Below are positions 1 to 63,715 of a stretch of DNA of 63,715 bases, one piece after another. The first letter of the stretch is position 1. Every line of letters begins with the position of its first letter. Both the position numbers and the translations under genes were made by a program. The notes beneath the pieces are model-generated. The model saw only the letters and a list, made by a program, of their open reading frames with translations. It was not told the origin of the DNA and made no database searches. The DNA comes from a virus (taxonomy: Duplodnaviria > Caudoviricetes). The stretch covers positions 1-63,715 of IMG/VR virus record IMGVR_UViG_3300031949_000032; one strand, 5' to 3'.

Positions 1-411
1 ACCGGAAATCTCAGTTAATGCAGGAGCGGTGAAGGTTGCACCCTGACGAACGTCAACGGAACCGGAAATCTCAGTTAATGCAGGAGCGGTGAAGGTTGCA
101 CCCTCTTGAACGTAAACGGAACCGGATATCTCAGTTAATGCAGGAGCGGTGAAGGTTGCACCCTGACGAACGTAAACGGAACCGGAAATCTCAGTTAATG
201 CAGGAGCGGTGAAGGTTGCACCCTGACGAACGTAAACGGAACCGGATTTTGTTAATGCAGGAGCGGTGAAGGTTGCACCCTCTTGAACGTAAACGGAACC
301 GGATTTTGTTAATGCAGGAGCGGTGAAGGTTGCACCCTGACGAACGTAAACGGAACCGGATTTTGTTAATGCAGGAGCGGTGAAGGTTGCACCCTCTTGA
401 ACGTAAACGGA
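1..411. repeat. Coding tandem repeat, 7 units of 57 or 60 bp
   Basis: Units accgga[aatctcagt|ttttgt]taatgcaggagcggtgaaggttgcacc[ctgacg|ctcttg]aacgt[c|a]aacgga. Confidence 0.97.
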
Positions 412-501
412 ACCGGATATAACTTCACAATCTTCTAATTGTTTATTAATGTCAGTTTGATTCTGAACAGTTATTTCAATATTTTTATTTATAGTTTTCA
501 T
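1..501 (-). CDS. N-terminal part of tandem-repeat (beta-solenoid-like) protein; continues across the window junction into 62828..63715
   Basis: ATG at 501 reads MKTINKNIEITVQNQTDINKQLEDCEVISG then SVYVQEGATFTAPALTKSG-type repeats with no stop to base 1; absent from the ORF track because it runs off the end. Confidence 0.85.
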   Translation of the reverse strand, partial: MKTINKNIEITVQNQTDINKQLEDCEVISGSVYVQEGATFTAPALTKSGSVYVRQGATFTAPALTKSGSVYVQEGATFTAPALTKSGSVYVRQGATFTAPALTEISGSVYVRQGATFTAPALTEISGSVYVQEGATFTAPALTEISGSVDVRQGATFTAPALTEISG

Positions 502-514
502 ATTATTTTGTTTT

Positions 515-835
515 TTAGTCAATAACTGGAACTAATCCCGAAGGAGTAAATTCATTTTGTTTACGTAATTCGTATAACCCGTCTTTAATCGTAGCCTTTT
601 TTATTTTTCCTTTTCCGGCTCCATGTTCATTATGCAATAATGAAGTGTTTTTAGCATCTAAATAGCCAAAAATGTAATTACCATCTTTAAATGGATAAAA
701 TATTCCATTATCAAATGAATGATTATTACCATGACTACCTGTCATTAAAATTTTGGATTCACATGCCTTTAATCCGTCTGGTAGTTTATTTATTTCTACA
801 AAGGCAATTTCTCCATGTCTGTAAGCTTTTTTCAT
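515..835 (-). CDS. Small His-motif protein, usual partner of DUF6745-like proteins
   Basis: YRHGE...GSHGNNH...LLHNEH...YELRKQNEF resembles the YRQGD/GHxH/HEEH/RQREY pattern as I recall it. Confidence 0.65.
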   Translation of the reverse strand: MKKAYRHGEIAFVEINKLPDGLKACESKILMTGSHGNNHSFDNGIFYPFKDGNYIFGYLDAKNTSLLHNEHGAGKGKIKKATIKDGLYELRKQNEFTPSGLVPVID

Positions 836-861: not shown

Positions 862-965
862 AAAAAAAACCCATCTTAAATCTTCGAGGATAGCGGCCTC
901 TAGGATAAAAAATGGGTTTAACTTGGGATTTTTTTTGTAGAACAATCCGCTATATCTTTCCACAA
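862..965 (-). promoter_or_regulatory. Structured 5' leader: two hairpins with complementary loops, the second ending in a U-tract (attenuator-like)
   Basis: Loop ATAGCGG (953-947) is complementary to loop CCGCTAT (896-890); stems TTGTGGAA/TTCTACAA and AAACCCAT/ATGGGTTT followed by a T-run. Confidence 0.65.
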
Positions 966-975
966 ATAAACAGAA

Positions 976-1007
976 CAAATATATAACGTTATTTCGACAT
1001 AAACAAA
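976..1007 (-). promoter_or_regulatory. Bacteroidetes-type housekeeping promoter
   Basis: TTTG-N20-TATATTTG on the minus strand; spacer contains TTATGTCGAAAT. Confidence 0.75.
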
Positions 1008-4282: not shown

Positions 4283-4966
4283 TTAAACTTTTTCTCTTTT
4301 GGAATGTCCTTTAAACTCATACACGAATGATGTTTGTTTTATCCTGTCGTATATATGCCATCCGTATATTTTACCAATTTCCTCAATAGGCAAATTAGTT
4401 GTCATTAAGGTTGTTTTTCTTTTATCGTATCGAGACATTAATATTTCTTCGAACGGTTTAGCTTCGGTACCGAAATAATTTGTTGTTTTAGCTTCGTAAC
4501 CAATATCATCAATAGCGAGAATTGAACAAGTTTTTAACTTTGATATTCCATTCGTATTGTTTTCCTTAAAATAATTAGCCATTTCCTTAGATTGAATATA
4601 TACAGGGTTAGAAATTCCACCTAAAAAAGCATCATGCGAGTAGTGAGTATCAATAAATTCTAAAATACCTTTCATTAAAACAGTTTTGCCAGTGCCAATA
4701 TTCCCCGTAAACAATGGGGCCTTTTGAAGGTAAATAGGGTTGCATGATCCAACTAACCAATAAAATATTTCAGAAAGCATCTTTTGATCTTCAGAAGTAA
4801 GACTCACTTTTTTATCATTCTGATCGAAGAATGCATCTTGCATAAATGACATTAGTTGTATTTTCAATTCTTTTACTCTACCTGCATCACTAAGATCAAA
4901 TATCTTTCGTCTCCAATTTTTTCCGATAATATCTCTCATTGTTTCCATAATTTTTATTTTACACAT
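4283..4966 (-). CDS. DnaC/IstB-like ATPase (helicase loader)
   Basis: Walker A GNIGTGKT, Walker B LAIDDIG, TTNL, YDRI. Confidence 0.85.
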   Translation of the reverse strand: MCKIKIMETMRDIIGKNWRRKIFDLSDAGRVKELKIQLMSFMQDAFFDQNDKKVSLTSEDQKMLSEIFYWLVGSCNPIYLQKAPLFTGNIGTGKTVLMKGILEFIDTHYSHDAFLGGISNPVYIQSKEMANYFKENNTNGISKLKTCSILAIDDIGYEAKTTNYFGTEAKPFEEILMSRYDKRKTTLMTTNLPIEEIGKIYGWHIYDRIKQTSFVYEFKGHSKREKV

Positions 4967-5700
4967 TCAGGCATATCAATGGGAATAGAGTTTGGTTTTA
5001 AATATTCCCGTTGCTTATAAACCTTATTCATATCAATGGCTTTGGTTAAAGTACTTTTCCAATCCAATTCGTTTGATTTACTTTTTTTCTTATGCTTCCA
5101 TCCGGCAGGAGTGGACCAGAAGTTTACATATGCTTTCTCTATGGATAGTTTTATATCTATGCTTGGATTCAATCGTTCTTGAATTTTCAAATAATCCTGG
5201 TCAACCAGTAATTTGTTATAAGTTTCATTTAATCCGGATAAGTATATTTCAAAATCATTTCTCCAATTCAGAGGAGTTTGTTCAATTGGTGATTTTGGTT
5301 TTTCTCCCACACCCTCTTTTCCAATAACTCTATTTATATTTTCATTTTCATTTTCATTTTCCATATGAGAGGTCATATGACCATTTATATGACCTGTTTT
5401 TTTAGTATATTGATTTTCTCCTTTAATATTATTCCTCCTAGATTCTGTAAAGGTTTTACGCCTATTTTGCTCTTCCTCTAATCTCTTATTAAAATATCTT
5501 CCATCACCATCAAGTATAAATTTGTCCTTTATGTTGACCCAAAGTTGTCCTACTGTTTGACCAATCATATGTTCGGTCATATGACCTCTATTAAATTGCA
5601 TCATCAACAATTCTATGTAAGCACCTTTTTCTTCAAAAGTCATTCCCATAGTTCCTCCAATCCAATCGTTCGGGTAAAATAAAAATGCTGGGTCTTTCAT
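4954..5700 (-). CDS. Replication initiator (DUF1376/YdaU-like N-terminus)
   Basis: PAFLFYPNDWIGGTMGMTFEEKGAYIELL; ENENEN linker; adjacent to DnaC-like gene. Confidence 0.8.
   Translation of the reverse strand: MKDPAFLFYPNDWIGGTMGMTFEEKGAYIELLMMQFNRGHMTEHMIGQTVGQLWVNIKDKFILDGDGRYFNKRLEEEQNRRKTFTESRRNNIKGENQYTKKTGHINGHMTSHMENENENENINRVIGKEGVGEKPKSPIEQTPLNWRNDFEIYLSGLNETYNKLLVDQDYLKIQERLNPSIDIKLSIEKAYVNFWSTPAGWKHKKKSKSNELDWKSTLTKAIDMNKVYKQREYLKPNSIPIDMPECVK
5339..5586. promoter_or_regulatory. Putative replication origin (iterons) within the initiator gene
   Basis: Perfect palindrome GGTCATATGACC at 5371-5382 and 5575-5586, extra CATATG/ATATGACC half-sites, AT-rich TTTTCA repeats. Confidence 0.5.
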
Positions 5701-5755
5701 TGATAATCAAATTTTTATACTATGTAGTTATGTAATAATCAAAATATTAAATGAT

Positions 5756-5857
5756 AAAAAAGCCCGAATCAATCCCTTTTCAGAGTATCCGGCTCCTGGA
5801 GGCATTAGGCGTTTCATTATCTTTGATCGGTCATTACCGGATATAATCACAGATCAA
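5756..5857 (-). promoter_or_regulatory. Structured 5' leader with two complementary 7-nt loops and a terminal U-tract
   Basis: Loop TATCCGG (5843-5837) is complementary to loop CCGGATA (5792-5786); stem TTGATC/GATCAA; ends CGGGCTTTTT. Confidence 0.7.
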
Positions 5858-5865
5858 CTATAACA

Positions 5866-5896
5866 CAAATATAACAATATGTTATTATAATGCAAA
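5866..5896 (-). promoter_or_regulatory. Bacteroidetes-type promoter for replication genes
   Basis: TTTG-N19-TATATTTG; overlaps near-palindrome ATAACAATATGTTAT. Confidence 0.75.
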
Positions 5897-5935
5897 CATT
5901 TAAATAATATTGTTATATTTTTGTTGTGATAAATA

Positions 5936-6697
5936 CTAAAACAGCCTCAACTGTCGTACATATTGGTTAAATCTGTTTTCTTGTAAGTAAAAATATGACT
6001 GTCCAATTTCACAGGCAATAAATTCAACCTTTGCCTTATAAGCAGAAATTCTACTGGATCCACTACCTAAATGAGTGTCGATAACCTTCATTCCTTCAGT
6101 CGTAAAATCTCTAAAAATATTATCATATAAAGCAACTGGTTTTTGAGTTGGGTGTATTTTAGTTTCATGGTTTCCACCTCCAGTATTCGATATACGGTAC
6201 ATTTTTGCAGGTTTATCAAATGAAGTCCAAGCCATTTCCCATTGAGAAAAGTTATCCCAAGGCTGCATTTTATCCCAGCAAATTATACAGCGTGTAGCTG
6301 GTAAATCAAAGTAGTTTCCTCCCCAAATAATTTGGTTTTTAGAAATACGAAATAGTTCTTTAAAATATTCCGGAGTTGGTTTTTCGTAATCCCAATCACA
6401 ATCCATAGTATTTAAAGCACGGTTCTTTAATTTACCTGAGCCTCCGTTTAATCTACCTTTTTTAAGTTTAACAGATGTGCTTTCTCCTGGGTATTTTCCC
6501 TTTTCTTTTCGGTTTGGGGCGGATCCCATTTGCATATTTGCTGCATTAATTCCATAAGGTGGGTCCACGATCGCTAAATCAAAATATTTGTCGGGATACT
6601 TAGACATAATAACCATGCAATCATCATTGAAAACAGAAGAAAAAGCACTACTGGTAACATTAGGTAACACGTCAACCATTTTATTTACTGTTTTCAC
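5936..6697 (-). CDS. DNA N6-adenine/N4-cytosine methyltransferase (beta class)
   Basis: DPPY, HPTQKP, DTHLGSGS. Confidence 0.9.
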   Translation of the reverse strand: MKTVNKMVDVLPNVTSSAFSSVFNDDCMVIMSKYPDKYFDLAIVDPPYGINAANMQMGSAPNRKEKGKYPGESTSVKLKKGRLNGGSGKLKNRALNTMDCDWDYEKPTPEYFKELFRISKNQIIWGGNYFDLPATRCIICWDKMQPWDNFSQWEMAWTSFDKPAKMYRISNTGGGNHETKIHPTQKPVALYDNIFRDFTTEGMKVIDTHLGSGSSRISAYKAKVEFIACEIGQSYFYLQENRFNQYVRQLRLF

Positions 6698-13808: not shown

Positions 13809-13925
13809 TTAATTATTAAGAGATTTAAATTTTTTATGCTTAGGGCGTTCCGATGGAATCATTTTTAATCCTAAAAAAATAAGGATCATGCCTACAATTA
13901 AACAAATTGTTATAATTATCGACAT
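13809..13925 (-). CDS. 38-aa single-TM protein
   Basis: Read by hand: MSIIITICLIVGMILIFLGLKMIPSERPKHKKFKSLNN. Confidence 0.55.
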   Translation of the reverse strand: MSIIITICLIVGMILIFLGLKMIPSERPKHKKFKSLNN

Positions 13926-14440
13926 TAGCAATAAATTTTATGTTTTCTAAACGATGCTTCCAACTCATTACGGTTTAAATAAATAGTTGAATTACTACCT
14001 TTTCCTTTTGATATGGAAACTTCACCTTTATGAGTGTCCATATATTTTTCATAACGAGTTGGTTTATTGTCAAAATATTGAGATATAGCATCTCTCCTTG
14101 TTATTAAAGGAGCATTAAACCCTAAGGCATCTGCCATTTCTTTAGCGGTTCTTTTTGCAGTTTCGTTAATTATAGATTCAATACTAGAGTCTATAAATTT
14201 GCTTTGTTCTTCAACTACTGAAGATTGTTTTTCTTCAATACCCAAATTCCTATTTATAATAGAAATTGCAGCCGCAATAACAGTTTCAATACTCTTATCA
14301 CTACAGTTACTATACCCATTTAAAACCCTGGCAACATGGGTAGGACTTAGTCCTGTAATTTCAGCTACCTTAGCCTTATTCCGACCAAGTAATGTTCTAA
14401 TCTCGTCTAAATTTGTAAGGGTTTGTTTTGTAGATGTCAT
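13925..14440 (-). CDS. Cro-like HTH protein with C-terminal excisionase-like domain
   Basis: KVAEITGLSPTHVARVLNG helix-turn-helix; first gene divergent from CI; C-terminal LITRRDA...YLNRNEL. Confidence 0.7.
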   Translation of the reverse strand: MTSTKQTLTNLDEIRTLLGRNKAKVAEITGLSPTHVARVLNGYSNCSDKSIETVIAAAISIINRNLGIEEKQSSVVEEQSKFIDSSIESIINETAKRTAKEMADALGFNAPLITRRDAISQYFDNKPTRYEKYMDTHKGEVSISKGKGSNSTIYLNRNELEASFRKHKIYC

Positions 14441-14457
14441 AATATAATTTATATTTG
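14427..14457 (+). promoter_or_regulatory. Rightward (repressor) promoter
   Basis: TTTG(14427)-N19-TATATTTG(14450). Confidence 0.6.
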
Positions 14458-14484
14458 GTTATGTTTATGTAAAAAACAACAATG

Positions 14485-14515
14485 CAAATATAACTAAATT
14501 TCGACATAATACAAA
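14485..14515 (-). promoter_or_regulatory. Leftward lytic promoter
   Basis: TTTG-N19-TATATTTG; spacer contains TTATGTCGAAAT, identical to 991-1002. Confidence 0.75.
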
Positions 14516-14566
14516 CATTTTGTATTATAAATTACAAATAACTATAACAATTTAATACTGATTATT

Positions 14567-15178
14567 ATGAAAGATAATGAACGAATGAATCTGTTGCTTT
14601 CTGAATTAAATGAAACAGCCAACAGTTTTGCAAAAACAATAGGGTTGCATCCTACCAATATCTACCATGTTCTGAATGGGAGGAATAAAATATCGGATAA
14701 ACTGGCTACACTTATTATAAATAAGTACGACCAAATTAATCCAGATTGGTTGACTCATGGCAAAGGAGAGATATATAACAAAATTACAACTACTATTACA
14801 CATGAGAATAAAACAATTTCGATGGCGCTGGGTGAATATGAATTTGGGGATATCTCAATTGAGCCCAATGGCGAAAAATTCATAATCCCCGGAATGAGTG
14901 AAGGATTTTTAATTAGGGTACGCGATGATTCAATGAGTCCTTTATATAATCCAGGAGATTTAGTAAGTGCCAGATTTGTTGAATTGACATCCCCTATTAT
15001 CTGGGGTAAGAATTACATAGTACTTACAAGTAATATTGGAATCATCCGTAAATTATTACCTGGTAACGAAAATGAGATTAAAATGGTATCAATTAACAGT
15101 AATTACCCTGAATTAGTTATGGACAATAAGATTATTAAGAAGTTGGCAAAAATTAGTGGAGTGGTTCATTTAGAATAG
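14567..15178 (+). CDS. cI: CI-like repressor (XRE HTH + S24 peptidase-like domain)
   Basis: N-terminal HTH with NPDWLTHGKG; VRDDSMSPLYNPGD; divergent from Cro-like gene, next to integrase. Confidence 0.9.
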   Translation: MKDNERMNLLLSELNETANSFAKTIGLHPTNIYHVLNGRNKISDKLATLIINKYDQINPDWLTHGKGEIYNKITTTITHENKTISMALGEYEFGDISIEPNGEKFIIPGMSEGFLIRVRDDSMSPLYNPGDLVSARFVELTSPIIWGKNYIVLTSNIGIIRKLLPGNENEIKMVSINSNYPELVMDNKIIKKLAKISGVVHLE

Positions 15179-16457
15179 TGTTTTGTAATTTGTCTATGAC
15201 TTTTCTATTACATTCATCAATTATTTTTAATCTCTTTTCAATGTATACATGCGTTGTCTGGTTTGATGTCTCATCATGCCCAAGACAAACTGATATTAAA
15301 CTTTCTGGTATTTCACAATCATTCCAAGCTATTGTAGCCCACGAATGACGAAACCAGTAACTAGTAATATCTTTGGCATTTGCAAACTTTAAATCTTTGC
15401 AAATGTCCTTTATATTATCGTTTAAAAACTTCATAAATTCATGGTGATCCTTATATTGATATGGTATTCTAAAGTACTTAGGTCTGTTAACCGTTCGCTC
15501 ATTTAAATTATTATCGGCAAACCGAAGCAAATACTTATCTCCTTTAAACCTATTAATTATCTCCAGTGCTTCAGGTTCTATTTTTATTGAATAAGACCTA
15601 TTATTTTTACTTTTTGTTTTGGCTCGTATATAATCCAATCTTCCATTATTAGGGGTCGTACTCCAAAACAGGTCAATAATATTGATCCCAATCAAATAAA
15701 AAATAAGCATTGCAATATCCCTGGATATAGCCAACCTCTCATTATCAGTTTCATAATTTTTAAAAGCCAGTACCTCTTGTAAGGTAAGGTTTCGCTTCTT
15801 GGTTGGGGAGCTTTTTATTTTGTATAGCTCAAATGGATTTTCAATTAGTTTTATTAGCTTCTGTTTTTTAGCAAGATAAAGTAAGTGCCTAATATTTCTC
15901 ATGTGTATAGATATTGTATTTACTGCTAAAAACTTATCCTTTCCTTTCCTATCCTTTTTTGGGCGTTTTAAAAATTGCTCATACTCAATTAAAAACTGGT
16001 AGTTTATTTGGTTAAAATCCAAAATACGGACTCCTATAAAATCAGATACACTATTAACAGTAAATTCAAACAATTCTGCGGATGATTTTTTACCAGATAA
16101 TTTTAAACTGGATATCTCTCGTTCAGAAAAACAGAAGAAATCTTCCCCGATCTCTGTAATATTTTTTAACACGCGTACCAATTGATTAATATCCATATGT
16201 TTTATCCGGTCTCCAATATTATCTATGGCAATATCTTCATATCCTTCAATAATACCTCTCAATTTTCGGCTTAATACCTTATAATTTGGGTGTTTTGTTT
16301 CAATTGTTCCTGATACGTTATCGAAAAACTTAGGATCAATATCATATTCGGTAGAAATATATCGAGTCGCACCAGCATGGGAAACGCGAATTTTTATATT
16401 ACATTTACCATCATTTTTTACTTCTAATTCCCTGATCTGTGCTTTAAAGCTTGCCAT
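15153..16457 (-). CDS. int: Tyrosine integrase (Bacteroidetes arm-binding + SAM-like type)
   Basis: N-terminal IKIRVSH arm domain; GINIIDL, YWFRHSWAT, LGH, catalytic Tyr in THVYI. Confidence 0.93.
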   Translation of the reverse strand: MASFKAQIRELEVKNDGKCNIKIRVSHAGATRYISTEYDIDPKFFDNVSGTIETKHPNYKVLSRKLRGIIEGYEDIAIDNIGDRIKHMDINQLVRVLKNITEIGEDFFCFSEREISSLKLSGKKSSAELFEFTVNSVSDFIGVRILDFNQINYQFLIEYEQFLKRPKKDRKGKDKFLAVNTISIHMRNIRHLLYLAKKQKLIKLIENPFELYKIKSSPTKKRNLTLQEVLAFKNYETDNERLAISRDIAMLIFYLIGINIIDLFWSTTPNNGRLDYIRAKTKSKNNRSYSIKIEPEALEIINRFKGDKYLLRFADNNLNERTVNRPKYFRIPYQYKDHHEFMKFLNDNIKDICKDLKFANAKDITSYWFRHSWATIAWNDCEIPESLISVCLGHDETSNQTTHVYIEKRLKIIDECNRKVIDKLQNTILNEPLH

Positions 16458-28366: not shown

Positions 28367-28403
28367 TCTATTGAGAATTGGTTACGATTAATTTTGAATG
28401 AAC

Positions 28404-28467
28404 CAAAAATATATAACTATGTTATAATTTAGTATACATTTTGTCGCATTATTTATACATTTTGTCG
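28404..28467. promoter_or_regulatory. Divergent late-promoter region with direct repeats
   Basis: TATACATTTTGTCG at 28433 and 28454 (21-bp period); minus-strand TATTTTTG -7 box at 28404-28411. Confidence 0.55.
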
Positions 28468-28501
28468 ATATTTTTTGTTTTCTTTACACAAAAATTCAAC
28501 A

Positions 28502-36815: not shown

Positions 36816-36862
36816 GTTGTAATTGTTATAATTTTGTTATATATTTGTGGACGTTCTTTGAA
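36816..36862 (+). promoter_or_regulatory. Rightward promoter with TTGTTA(T/C)A repeats and boxA-like GTTCTTTGAA
   Basis: GTTG-N20-TATATTTG(36840); three TTGTTA(T/C)A motifs. Confidence 0.55.
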
Positions 36863-37289: not shown

Positions 37290-37622
37290 TTAATGGCGTA
37301 TAAATAAATAAATTACAATAGATAAGATATATAAAATCAAAACTAAATATTGTACATAGGTTTTAAAAATGAATGTCAATATAGCACTTAAAAACCAGCC
37401 GATAATTGCGCCTAATAAAACAATGTACCATTTTATAAAAAAGAATGAAGTGATGAAAATTGAAATTGCCGAAAGAAAACCAATTATACTTAAATAACCC
37501 GTTCCGTTGTTTACGAATAGTTTTCCAATTGGCCAACCTTTTTGATTTGCAAAACCTTCATAAGAAAACGATATTACTCCAGAAGTAAACACAATTAAAA
37601 AAACAATACTTAATACTATCAT
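37290..37622 (-). CDS. 4-TM membrane protein (moron)
   Basis: Four hydrophobic segments; GWPIG motif. Confidence 0.75.
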   Translation of the reverse strand: MIVLSIVFLIVFTSGVISFSYEGFANQKGWPIGKLFVNNGTGYLSIIGFLSAISIFITSFFFIKWYIVLLGAIIGWFLSAILTFIFKTYVQYLVLILYILSIVIYLFIRH

Positions 37623-37638
37623 AATGTTATTCTTTTTT

Positions 37639-37671
37639 CAAATATAATTAAATATAAATAACTATTGCAAA
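37639..37671 (-). promoter_or_regulatory. Promoter of the membrane-protein moron
   Basis: TTTG-N21-TATATTTG. Confidence 0.65.
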
Positions 37672-37694
37672 TTAAAAAAATAATTACGAAGTTT

Positions 37695-37872
37695 GTGGTG
37701 CAAGATCAACGGGTATTCACCACATCTAAAAAAGTATTTAGAACACTAAAAATAAAGCTGTGTTCCCGTTTCAGTACCTACCGTGAGGTGGATATTGTTG
37801 GTCTTGCAACCTTTGGGGACACAGCCCCATTTTACAAACTGTGTAATTTTTTACAAACGAATGCAAGACCAA
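37695..37872 (+). ncRNA. C4/CI-like antisense regulatory RNA with flanking targets
   Basis: Stem GCTGTGTTCCC/GGGGACACAGC (37757-37825) contains GTTGGTCTTGCA, complementary to TGCAAGATCAAC (37699) and TGCAAGACCAA (37862, over an ATG). Confidence 0.7.
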
Positions 37873-38073
37873 GTAAAAAATTACTCGAACGATAACCAGG
37901 TTATCAGTTTAAGTACGTCCACCCACGTAACGGGCATTTCAATTCAAACAATTCAAATAATCAAGAACGAGTTATTTAATGCACTTGCCGACCCGGAAGT
38001 TTTACCACTCTATAAGAGAAGAGTGAAATTAGCCATGTGTGAAATATCTTTTTTAAAAGGAGGTATATCATGA
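37861..38073 (+). CDS. Small protein upstream of the antirepressor (icd/kil-like position)
   Basis: ATG at 37861 lies in the antisense target; ATGA coupling to the BRO gene. Confidence 0.6.
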   Translation: MQDQVKNYSNDNQVISLSTSTHVTGISIQTIQIIKNELFNALADPEVLPLYKRRVKLAMCEISFLKGGIS

Positions 38074-39083
38074 ATACACTTGAGATTTTTCAATTCAATA
38101 GTTTGAATGTTCGTGTTTTTGTAAATGAAAACAGTGAGCCTGAGTTCTGCGCCACTGACGTAACTAAGATTTTAGGATACTCAAACGGCCCAGACGCAAT
38201 TAGTAAACATTGTAATTCAAAGGGTATAGCTAAACGCGATACCCTTACTTCTGGCGGCTTACAATCACTAACTTACATTTCAGAAGGTAACCTTTATCGT
38301 TTAATTCTTAAATCCGAGAAACCAGAAGCCGAACCATTTGAAACTTGGGTATGCGACGAAGTAATACCATCAATTCGTAAACATGGAGCTTATATGACTT
38401 CTAACGCATCTATTACACCCATGTCTACCTCAGAAATGCTTCTTAAGCAAGCTCAAATAAATGTAGAAATTGAGAAGAAGCAAAAAGAGTATGGTCTTAG
38501 AATTTCTCAAATAGAAGATGAAATTACCAGCATTAAATTACAGAATAATACCAGTTCGTTTATTCACAATATTGGTACCAATGACAATGAGAAACTTTAT
38601 TTACTACTTAGTTCTTTAAACGAAAATGCAAATAGCTTATCTCGTAAACTAGGAATTCATCCTACTAATTTATATCATATAATAAGTGGAAGAAATAAAC
38701 TTTCTGACAAAATGATCGAACGTATATCTTCAAGATTTAACGTAAGTCCTAATTGGTTAAAATTTGGAGTTGGTGATATGTTTATTGACAATATCCCTCA
38801 AGAAATTTATTTGCCGGTACCAGAAGAAAAGGTTCCGGAAATTACCCTTAGAGATAAAATAAGGTTATTGGTAAATAAGTATTCAAATGCAACTGGAACA
38901 TTTCAAAAAACTATTTGGGATAATGTTTATCAGACCTTGTATTATAACTATCACATATCTATTAAGAGTTACGTTAAAATAAGGAAAGATGAAACTTATT
39001 TGGAAGTAGCAGAGCGCAAAGAGCATCTTGATAAAATATATACAATTATTTCGAATATGGTAAGCCGTAAAATGACAGTATAA
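38070..39083 (+). CDS. BRO-N antirepressor with internal CI-like HTH
   Basis: BRO-N (FCATDVTKILGY...ISEGNLYRLILKS...WVCDEVIPSIRKHGAY); internal HTH similar to CI; C-terminal helical domain. Confidence 0.9.
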   Translation: MNTLEIFQFNSLNVRVFVNENSEPEFCATDVTKILGYSNGPDAISKHCNSKGIAKRDTLTSGGLQSLTYISEGNLYRLILKSEKPEAEPFETWVCDEVIPSIRKHGAYMTSNASITPMSTSEMLLKQAQINVEIEKKQKEYGLRISQIEDEITSIKLQNNTSSFIHNIGTNDNEKLYLLLSSLNENANSLSRKLGIHPTNLYHIISGRNKLSDKMIERISSRFNVSPNWLKFGVGDMFIDNIPQEIYLPVPEEKVPEITLRDKIRLLVNKYSNATGTFQKTIWDNVYQTLYYNYHISIKSYVKIRKDETYLEVAERKEHLDKIYTIISNMVSRKMTV

Positions 39084-54169: not shown

Positions 54170-54225
54170 AATTGGCTATTTTATTCGGTCGAATGTAAAT
54201 AACATCGGGTATTTATTTGTGTTTT

Positions 54226-54247
54226 TTTGTCGTAATTTTTCGACAAA
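54226..54247. promoter_or_regulatory. Inverted repeat in divergent late region
   Basis: TTTGTCG-N8-CGACAAA. Confidence 0.5.
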
Positions 54248-54302
54248 TTATAACAAAATTAAAACATATAGGATATAGATTTGTAGAATAATGTAATTTG
54301 TA

Positions 54303-62827: not shown

Positions 62828-63715
62828 TTACCATTCCTCGGTAAATGTGTAGTCATGTTGTAATCCAAACGATTCCATTTTAGCTGCCTTACAACTATTT
62901 TTATTTGTTCCAATAAAATATTCCCTCCCCGTAGAAGGGCAGTGGCAATTATAAAACAAAAGAGGATCTTCAATTTTTTGAATAGTGAAACTTACTATTC
63001 GCATAGGATATCCATAACCATCATCTTTTACTTCATCTAATATTTTATAATCAGACAATTCTTTCATTTTTACCTTATCCATAAATTGGTATGCAACCCG
63101 GCGATGTTCTATATTATCAATAGCAAAAACTTCAGAAGCCTTTAGCTTATCAAATTTTATTTTCAAAAACCATTCTTTTTTAAACTCTACATCGTTTAAA
63201 TAATATTTTGATTTGCTGTTTTTAGCGATAAGCCAATCCGAAGAATGTTCGGTTATAATCCACGTATTTGCTGAAAAATTTTTCCAAAGTCGTTTTTCTA
63301 CACCTAAATTATTTTGAATTTTTATAAATCCGGAAATCTCAGTTAATGCAGGAGCGGTGAAGGTTGCACCCTCTTGAACGTCAACGGAACCGGATTTTGT
63401 TAATGCAGGAGCGGTGAAGGTTGCACCCTGACGAACGTCAACGGAACCGGATTTTGTTAATGCAGGAGCGGTGAAGGTTGCACCCTCTTGAACGTAAACG
63501 GAACCGGAAATCTCAGTTAATGCAGGAGCGGTGAAGGTTGCACCCTGACGAACGTCAACGGAACCGGAAATCTCAGTTAATGCAGGAGCGGTGAAGGTTG
63601 CACCCTCTTGAACGTAAACGGAACCGGATTTTGTTAATGCAGGAGCGGTGAAGGTTGCACCCTCTTGAACGTAAACGGAACCGGAAATCTCAGTTAATGC
63701 AGGAGCGGTGAAGGT
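62828..63715 (-). CDS. C-terminal part of repeat-solenoid protein with DUF6745-like domain
   Basis: Open frame from 63715 to the stop at 62828; repeats followed by NIEHRRVAYQFM...CHCPSTGREYF. Confidence 0.85.
   Translation of the reverse strand, partial: TFTAPALTEISGSVYVQEGATFTAPALTKSGSVYVQEGATFTAPALTEISGSVDVRQGATFTAPALTEISGSVYVQEGATFTAPALTKSGSVDVRQGATFTAPALTKSGSVDVQEGATFTAPALTEISGFIKIQNNLGVEKRLWKNFSANTWIITEHSSDWLIAKNSKSKYYLNDVEFKKEWFLKIKFDKLKASEVFAIDNIEHRRVAYQFMDKVKMKELSDYKILDEVKDDGYGYPMRIVSFTIQKIEDPLLFYNCHCPSTGREYFIGTNKNSCKAAKMESFGLQHDYTFTEEW
63329..63715. repeat. Coding tandem repeat, 6 units plus a 36-bp partial unit identical to bases 1-36
   Basis: Same unit as 1-411. Confidence 0.97.

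Follow-up and report, generated by a model that had tools for sequence, protein, structure and literature searches.

Genomic context of leader 2

The DNA analyzed here (63,715 nucleotides, hereafter the window) is a complete virus record of IMG/VR, 63,715 bp in length, with direct terminal repeats of 36 bp and a G+C content of 33.5%. It is a temperate phage of the Bacteroidota type, with genes for a tyrosine integrase (15153-16457, minus strand), an S24 CI-like repressor (14567-15178, plus strand) and a divergent cro-like HTH protein (13925-14440, minus strand). In a blastn comparison with cultured phages, the only match was a methylase gene, which is similar to the methylases of Flavobacterium and Cellulophaga phages.

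The element of interest, leader 2 (5756-5857, minus strand), is located within a long minus-strand block of DNA-metabolism genes. It is preceded, in order, by genes for SbcC-like and RecT-like proteins, an MBL hydrolase, an HNH protein and an N6/N4 methylase, and followed, in order, by genes for a DUF1376-like 'primosomal' protein, a DnaC/IstB-like loader, a C5 methylase and a MazG-like protein. The DUF1376-like protein (4954..5700, minus strand; 248 aa), encoded by the gene immediately downstream of leader 2, matches PF07120 of Pfam with E = 2.6e-6 and a score of 28.1 bits, which is below the cut-off of 30.1, and matches phrog_3992 ('primosomal protein') with E = 3.5e-11; no match to it was found in NCBIfam. 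The next gene (4283..4966, minus strand) encodes a DnaC/IstB-like helicase loader (phrog_50, E = 6.6e-25; PF01695), for which the NCBIfam matches are all below their cut-offs. The sub-cut-off Pfam match, the PHROG label and the adjoining loader together suggest that the DUF1376-like protein may be a replication initiator. Its relatives on genome contigs are found mostly in Bacteroidota MAGs, and tblastn against cultured phages returned two weak partial matches. Between the end of leader 2 and the start codon is an A/T-rich spacer of 55 nt (5701..5755, minus strand), in which TTTGATTAT can be seen twice by eye.

Anatomy of leader 2

On the minus strand of 5756-5857, the sequence-only reading had described a promoter followed by two hairpins with complementary loops, and each of these parts is present where it was placed. 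The consensus of Bacteroidetes promoters is TTTG-N17-21-TAnnTTTG, and an exact match to it is found at 5866-5896 (minus strand), consisting of the -33 element TTTG (5893..5896) and the -7 element TATATTTG (5866..5873), with 19 nt between the two. There are 11 exact matches to the consensus in the window, this one included, compared to 4.1 expected. The transcript of leader 2 is predicted to start at about 5858-5862. A repeat search identified an inverted repeat around this promoter, with arms of 19 nt that are 95% complementary and separated by 26 nt: the right arm (5862..5880) overlaps the -7 box and the left arm (5907..5925) is upstream of the -33 element. Both arms contain ATTGTTATA, which is also present within the cI/cro intergenic region, and the inverted repeat is possibly an operator.

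The first hairpin predicted by RNAfold, P1 (5823..5857, minus strand), forms the predicted 5' end of the transcript and consists of six base pairs (TTGATC/GATCAA), a 4x4 internal loop and four base pairs (ATTA/TAAT) that enclose the 7-nt loop L1, UAUCCGG (5837..5843, minus strand). A linker of 12 nt (5811..5822, minus strand) leads from P1 to the base of an interrupted terminator-like hairpin (5762..5810, minus strand; predicted by RNAfold; -11.2 kcal/mol), which is composed of an outer stem in three short segments, P2 (GCCU.AAU.CCU / AGG.AUU.GGGC), and an apical stem, P3, that carries the loop L2, CCGGAUA (5786..5792, minus strand), the exact complement of L1. A closing stem of three pairs (GAG/CTC) had been assigned to L2 in the sequence-only reading; the hairpin itself stands, and its closing stem has four pairs, GGAG/CUCU (5793-5796 / 5782-5785, minus strand), of which one is G-U. 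The complementarity of L1 and L2 is exactly 7 nt with none in the flanking sequences, and the two loops are 44 nt apart on the same predicted transcript.

The outer-stem GGGC is followed immediately by six U (5756..5761, minus strand), and the stem beside this U-run has four pairs, next to a 5-nt bulge. A simple scan of 5600-6000 called no terminators. Termination at leader 2 is therefore not assured, given a basal stem of only four pairs and the lack of a terminator call by the simple scan. An open reading frame of 40 aa with a GTG start codon (5728-5850) overlaps leader 2 and was considered as a possible leader peptide, which was rejected because the canonical leaders described below have no ORF in common and because the changes among them compensate each other in pairs.

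A second leader with a different loop code

The window contains a paralogue of leader 2, designated leader 1 (862..983, minus strand), ahead of a 106-aa gene to which no function is assigned. On the minus strand it has a -7 box (976-983), a P1 hairpin (934-966) with the loop AUAGCGG (947-953), a terminator hairpin (870-916) with the loop CCGCUAU (890-896) and a U-run (862-869), and its fold has a z-score of -2.47. A full-consensus promoter is located ahead of each of the two leaders, which are collinear in an alignment from the promoter through the U-run. Their loops differ at four of seven positions, each difference being accompanied by a compensating change in the partner loop. The cognate loop duplexes have predicted energies of about -9 kcal/mol and the cross duplexes -2.3 and -3.0 kcal/mol; by this measure, the two codes are mutually non-cognate, in agreement with the orthogonality that had been attributed to them. 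The sole relative of the leader-1 gene (at locus L083) has no such leader, as judged by eye.

How often such an arrangement would arise by chance depends on how much of it is specified. The whole fold of leader 2 is unexceptional (z = -0.96; 35 of 200 shuffled sequences fold as well), and a generic motif of two hairpins of at least 3 bp, no more than 90 nt apart, with exactly complementary 7-nt loops occurs 11 times in the window, compared to 5.0 +/- 2.2 times in 60 Markov shuffles. Taken alone, the loop match in leader 2 is weak evidence. A 7-nt complement of the terminator loop within 110 nt upstream was obtained in none of 200 shuffles for leader 2 and in one of 200 for leader 1. A composite signature, defined as a -7 box followed by a hairpin of -9 kcal/mol or lower with a T-run, the apical loop of which has a complement of at least 7 nt, is found at exactly two sites in the window, which are leaders 1 and 2, compared to a mean of 0.3 and a maximum of 2 in 40 shuffled windows.

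Leaders ahead of homologous genes

The upstream regions of DUF1376-like relatives were taken from the best 80 of 436 IMG/VR loci, the best 80 of at least 513 metagenome loci and 22 genome loci, the IMG/VR and metagenome relatives having been confirmed by tblastn. A strict scan for two hairpins was positive in 33 of the best 80 IMG/VR loci (not deduplicated), and in 29 of 143 distinct upstream regions versus 51 of 2860 Markov controls; a relaxed scan that admitted loops of 7-16 nt was uninformative (97 of 143 regions versus 363 of 715 controls). A terminator-like hairpin followed by a U-run is present in 60 of 145 distinct upstream regions and absent from the other 85. In a test centered on these terminators, which assumed no P1 hairpin, 37 of the 60 terminator-bearing regions contained an upstream complement of the terminator apical loop, 6-8 nt in length (shuffle p <= 0.015), and 23 did not, some of them (e.g., L049 and L078) failing only because the loop was shrunk in the minimum free energy structure. 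Complements of at least 7 nt were found for 36 of 60 terminators within their own locus, versus 103 of 3290 mismatched pairs of loci. The positive regions include that of L003, which precedes the closest full-length relative among the loci fetched (59% identical), and 14 distinct loop codes are represented among the 37 of them, both leaders of the window included. In several variants, the 5' partner looks single-stranded instead of being displayed in a hairpin loop, and so what is invariant is the pairing between the terminator's apical loop and a segment close to the promoter. A -7 box is located 4-20 nt ahead of the 5' complementary segment in nearly all of the related leaders inspected by eye.

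A canonical group of 26 distinct leaders has the layout -7 box, P1, linker ending in ..UUAUUG, P2, P3 and U-run, with the start codon 15-18 nt farther on, and 22 of these were aligned, omitting four that have a different P1 (L056, L078, L079 and L082). In this alignment, every cell of the loop-loop helix (100%) is paired, five of its seven pairs show double changes, and P1, P2 and P3 all covary. The whole structure is 98% paired, compared to 72% in column shuffles (none of 500 reached the observed value) and 35-50% when the partners are slid out of register. RNAalifold independently recovered P1, P2 and P3, together with a covarying helix of 2 bp in the internal loop. The codes found in the canonical group are GUCGCAU, GUCGGAU, GUAGGAU and GUACGAG, one leader (L049) having the two partners swapped (AUGCGAC in L1 and GUCGCAU in L2), and the same C/A code switch occurs on two scaffolds (L048 versus L031, and L055 versus L067). 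Across the codes, cognate duplexes are predicted at about -9 kcal/mol and cross duplexes at -0.9 to -3.5 kcal/mol; the terminator hairpins alone are predicted at -11 to -25 kcal/mol.

Sequence and comparison together establish a host-type promoter, a structured leader, a hairpin with a U-run ahead of the gene, and the selective maintenance of Watson-Crick pairing between the two loops. The sequence-only reading had staked its functional claim on covariation, which is present in the canonical leaders, both in the loop pairs and in all stems. Its proposal of a recurring RNA leader with loop-loop pairing is borne out by the two copies in the window and by the same design ahead of homologous genes, with at least 14 codes and compensatory change. 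For leader 2 in particular, a search of IMG/VR for relatives with the stems anchored and the loops left free gave a single match, which was inside an unrelated ORF. As no close enough homologue was found, the support for the pairing of leader 2 itself comes from its paralogue and from analogues.

Distribution of the canonical leaders

A covariance model, R1, was built from the canonical DUF1376 leaders. When the window was searched with R1 with filters off, 21 matches with E = 1.5-9.5 were returned, none of which overlaps leader 2 (5756-5857) or leader 1 (862-983). The leaders of the window share the design and the downstream gene of the canonical subfamily and are not members of it at the sequence level. 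Leader 2 resembles the canonical leaders in preceding a homologous gene, in the order of promoter, P1, linker, P2/P3 and U-run, and in having complementary loops of 7 nt, but its P1 is longer and interrupted, its loop letters are unrelated to theirs, and its U-run is placed 61 nt ahead of the start codon, compared to the 15-18 nt of the canonical leaders.

Exactly one copy of R1, located at the DUF1376 gene, was found in 14 of 15 phage records, and two copies were found in the remaining one, G004. The two copies of G004 are 1.25 kb apart, with the code GUAGGAU ahead of an ABC-ATPase-like gene and GUACGAG ahead of the DUF1376 gene; the pattern that had been noted in the window, of different codes ahead of separate operons, is thus repeated in another phage. 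R1 matches were found in 7 of 100 metagenome and genome loci, none in G006-G010 and none in 151 sampled Bacteroidota genomes.

Comparison with known RNA families and systems

A match to a characterized Rfam family had been named as the observation that would remove the novelty of the leaders, and at gathering level Rfam 15 has no match in the window or in 16 related loci. Kinship to C4 RNA, which the sequence-only reading had considered possible through a C4-like element at 37.7 kb, is not borne out: even at E = 10, C4 matched neither of the two leaders nor the 37.7-kb element, and there were no matches to the mepA or mini-ykkC families at E up to 10 in the three intervals searched (5650-5950, 800-1060 and 37600-37900). 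The other known RNAs and ribozymes were rejected, as they gave chance-level Rfam matches only (sR14, with 18.3 bits versus a gathering cut-off of 38, AgvB, mir-31_2 and drum). No description of the leader was found in the literature searched, and the motif lists in survey supplements, such as those of candidate RNAs from the human microbiome, may hold one. The leaders constitute an uncatalogued and apparently widespread class of phage RNA, of which the design, a loop contact on an intrinsic terminator, was already known.

In the ColE1 plasmid, RNA I and RNA II control replication through fully complementary 7-nt loops, the letters of which serve as incompatibility codes, and in phages P1 and P7 heteroimmunity is due to the different C4 specificities of the different phages. 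The regulators of ColE1, and those of pT181 and pIP501, where countertranscripts drive the attenuation of rep genes, are antisense RNAs transcribed from the opposite strand and complementary over their full length, whereas both loops of the leaders described here are on one sense RNA, with stems that are not complementary to each other. On the opposite (plus) strand within or beside 5756-5857, no match to TTTG-N17-21-TAnnTTTG was found, a search that covers the consensus and would pass over weaker promoters. The guanidine-II riboswitch (mini-ykkC) consists of two hairpins with conserved ACGR tetraloops, whereas the loops of leader 2 are 7 nt long (UAUCCGG/CCGGAUA) and have no Rfam match.

The closest mechanistic counterpart is the guanidine-IV riboswitch (mepA motif), in which the loop of P1 is positioned to contact the loop of a terminator hairpin across a single-stranded linker. 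This contact is proposed to keep the terminator stem from being completed, the linker not being long enough for both (PMC11611296; bioRxiv 10.1101/2020.10.21.349134), so that loop contact and a full terminator stem would be mutually exclusive and contact would lead to read-through. Conservation at the loop positions of guanidine-IV, which form the ligand pocket, exceeds 97% (bioRxiv 10.1101/2020.10.21.349134), whereas the loops of the present leaders vary freely as long as they remain complementary. The seven canonical pairs of the leaders should need no ligand, and the genes downstream are for replication instead of guanidine export or detoxification.

In lysogens of the satellite phage P4, an RNA derived from its own leader terminates transcription before the replication genes (PMC4825925). 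The leaders resemble the P4 CI RNA, C4 and IsrK in having a regulatory segment and its complement within one untranslated leader of a phage operon. In P4 (seqB with seqA/seqC) and its C4 relatives, a ribosome-binding region or a Rho-dependent site is targeted, whereas the target here is an intrinsic terminator, at its apical loop; the complementarity here is of 7 nt, from loop to loop, and the C4 model does not match. The zipper-type attenuator of the pLS20 conjugation operon is similar in that an upstream stem-loop, in the leader of a mobile element, is complementary to the downstream intrinsic terminator and controls it. The pLS20 stems zip into one long antiterminator helix, whereas in the leaders only the loops are complementary and both hairpins are kept by covariation.

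Proposed mechanism

The interpretation preferred here, put forward with about even confidence, is that the promoter-proximal leader RNA of about 100 nt attenuates transcription of the replication operon (DUF1376-like protein, then DnaC-like loader) by means of an intrinsic terminator that is gated by a kissing loop. The kissing loop of L1 and L2 would form co-transcriptionally, once the apical stem P3 has been made; it would then compete with, or modulate, closure of the weak, interrupted basal stem beside the U-run, and would so set the read-through of RNA polymerase into the replication genes. By analogy with guanidine-IV, the sub-model favored for this attenuator is that kissing results in read-through and that whatever blocks L1 from L2 would increase termination, a likely competitor being a terminated leader RNA of the same code that occupies L1 on the nascent transcript. 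The effect may instead run the other way, with the kiss locking the terminator.

The geometry of the leaders was estimated by placing P1, the kissing helix and the terminator hairpin roughly on one line, as in 7-nt kissing complexes of the ColE1 type. By this crude estimate, the canonical leaders would require a span of about 1.0-1.9 times the maximal length of the linker, and leader 1 a span of about 1.0 times that length; for leader 2, a calculation by hand in which all of P1 was counted suggests a ratio of about 1.3. The ratio is 0.2-0.4 in four variants with long linkers (L056, L127, L149 and L159), and steric competition between the kissing loop and the basal stem would therefore not be universal. 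The retention of perfect pairing fits a positive, essential role of the kissing loop. The location of a dedicated promoter right before the terminator fits a short RNA that would itself be a regulator, following the logic of P4.

Alternative explanations

Regulation in trans could account for much of the same evidence: the terminated leader would be an immunity or copy-control RNA that kisses nascent leaders of the same code, from the phage's own genome copies or from a superinfecting phage, and forces early termination, an RNA-only switch comparable to P4 CI RNA or to plasmid countertranscripts. This is considered rather unlikely, though the promoter directly ahead of the terminator, the temperate character of the phage (integrase, S24 CI-like repressor and cro-like HTH protein) and the association of the canonical leader with a replication gene all speak in its favor. 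So do the gap between cognate (about -9 kcal/mol) and cross duplexes (-0.9 to -3.5 kcal/mol), the occurrence of the same C/A code switch on two different scaffolds, and the precedent of P4, where a leader-derived RNA blocks the phage's own replication genes (PMC4825925). Covariation does not distinguish cis from trans pairing, however; complementarity of 7 nt only implies that no extended duplex would follow the kiss; and the stems vary at least as much as the loops, so that nothing points to diversifying selection acting on the codes in particular. A form that would join this trans activity to the attenuator, likewise a speculative proposal of low probability, is a self-recognizing switch with a seven-letter address, which would serve phage replication both as a sensor of copy number and as an immunity device, made of RNA alone. 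At the start of infection, the nascent leader would kiss itself and allow read-through into the replication genes; later, terminated RNA would accumulate with its loops free and would kiss the L1 of new transcripts of the same code before L2 is made, resulting in termination.

That the kiss regulates nothing, and simply compacts or stabilizes a constitutive terminator, an insulator or a 5' untranslated region, giving nuclease protection or a fixed degree of attenuation, is improbable. In favor of this reading, no conserved alternative antiterminator pairing is present, the complementarity being exactly that of the loops; the terminator hairpins are stable alone (-11 to -25 kcal/mol); and the long-linker variants could hold both structures together. 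Without some form of control, however, there would be little point in placing a promoter right ahead of a strong terminator and of an essential gene, and the perfect loop pairing in 22 of 22 aligned leaders argues for strong selection.

Two further readings deny the RNA contact at leader 2 altogether. The first, which is very unlikely, is that the complementary 7-mers are a DNA-level inverted repeat, either half-sites for a dimeric protein or an origin structure. An inverted repeat would covary in the same way as an RNA pairing, there are no G-U pairs in the kissing helix, and the element is beside the presumed initiator gene, which contains GGTCATATGACC palindromes. Nevertheless, each 7-mer exactly occupies the loop of a hairpin that itself covaries; on the other strand, the G-U pairs in P2 and P3 would turn into C-A mismatches; the swapped 7-mers of L049 would flip the orientation of the half-sites, a change that is neutral for RNA; and the U-run and promoter make the element strand-specific. 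Because of the loop placement, the G-U pairs, the L049 swap and the common direction of promoter and U-run, a sense-strand RNA is favored over DNA. The second, also highly improbable, is that the loop match of the window leaders is a coincidence in A/T-rich intergenic DNA and that only the canonical leaders elsewhere are functional. In its favor, the generic motif is common (11 observed versus 5 expected), the composite signature reached 2 in at least one of 40 shuffled windows, and R1 does not recognize the window leaders; against it, there are two collinear copies, each right after a consensus promoter and each ending in a U-run, the loops are rich in G+C compared to the 33.5% of the genome, the complement recurred in 0 of 200 and 1 of 200 shuffles, and the placement is before the same gene as in 36 other positive regions.

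Least probable of all is a riboswitch akin to guanidine-IV or guanidine-II that senses a ligand at the loop-loop interface: the two-hairpin design with a terminator-loop contact is the same, and the window loops contain CGG/CCG, but loops with 14 codes (compared to more than 97% conservation in guanidine-IV) are too variable for a ligand pocket, seven Watson-Crick pairs should form unaided, no Rfam riboswitch matches at E up to 10, and the downstream genes are for replication, not transporters.

Implications

If the kissing-loop attenuator is real, uncultured Bacteroidota phages possess a widespread regulatory RNA, absent from Rfam 15, at the point where the decision to express the replication genes is made. 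It would also be a ligand-free version, programmable by its letters, of a design in which a loop contacts a terminator loop and which has so far been known from guanidine-IV, and it would be a simple system to test, since a mutation in either loop should abolish function and the combination of both should bring it back. The variability of the codes makes them attractive as orthogonal transcription gates. If the self-recognizing switch were true, neither an antisense promoter nor a protein would be needed for control, and orthogonal codes would permit the independent control of several operons or of co-infecting phages. The codes may also account for heteroimmunity or dosage control in phages that have no known RNA regulators.

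Sequence elements at the leader promoters

The promoter of leader 2, the minus-strand kissing-loop RNA leader at 5756-5857, is flanked on both sides by a 19-bp inverted repeat with 95% complementary arms (5862-5880 and 5907-5925). Both arms contain ATTGTTATA, of which the window has six copies compared to 2.7 expected, including those at 13906-13914, at 14543-14551 in the cI/cro intergenic region, and at 36822-36830. The inverted repeat with its ATTGTTATA may be an operator. A different word, resembling GTCGAAA, lies between the -33 and -7 elements in several promoter regions (976-1007, 14485-14515, 28367-28474 and 54170-54302), with ATGTCGAAAT as the example at leader 1 (the paralogous minus-strand leader) and at the cro-side promoter; L033, a locus of a related phage, likewise has a promoter word of this kind.

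Genes downstream of the leaders

The spacer from the U-run of leader 2 to the start codon of the DUF1376-like gene (5701-5755, minus strand) was seen by eye to contain two copies of TTTGATTAT. The second of these stops 4 nt short of the ATG and, also by eye, looks like a -7 box that is mismatched at a single position, which makes it conceivable that a second promoter would produce a nearly leaderless mRNA. Within the DUF1376-like gene, copies and near copies of the 12-bp palindrome GGTCATATGACC are found at 5362-5394 and 5566-5586, and the conserved motif RGHMT is among the codons covered by one of the copies; these palindromes may be origin iterons, or may be coincidental.

Behind leader 1, the 106-aa gene is followed by a gene for a repeat protein, in which imperfect repeats of approximately 70-80 nt each are arrayed within an ORF (63167-63715 and 1-522, minus strand) that extends off the end of the record and resumes across the terminal repeat. 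The related phage record G004 has two canonical leaders (locus L187, 1501-1587, and locus L191) that are 1.25 kb apart and differ in loop code, one preceding an ABC-ATPase-like gene of 382 aa and the other a DUF1376 gene. A 64-aa protein, putatively DNA-binding as judged by eye, ends directly ahead of the first leader.

Third structured leader

A third structured leader (37690-37850, plus strand) is predicted to form a long hairpin with a folding energy of -50.6 kcal/mol (z = -4.0), followed by GGGG[ACACAGC]CCCC and then AUUUU. The 7-nt terminator loop ACACAGC is complementary to GCUGUGU at 37757-37763, and AACGGG/CCCGUU and GCAAGAUC/GGUCUUGC are further complementary pairs. Downstream are a 70-aa ORF (37861-38073) and a Bro-N/HTH antirepressor-like gene (38070-39083), an arrangement similar to that of c4-icd-ant in P1. 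The Rfam C4 model did not match the third leader, even at E = 10.

Immunity region

The window has a lambda-like immunity region (13925-16457) comprising a cro-like HTH gene and an integrase gene on the minus strand, an S24 CI-like repressor gene on the plus strand, and divergent Bacteroidetes-type promoters at 14427-14457 (plus) and 14485-14515 (minus). The phage is temperate.
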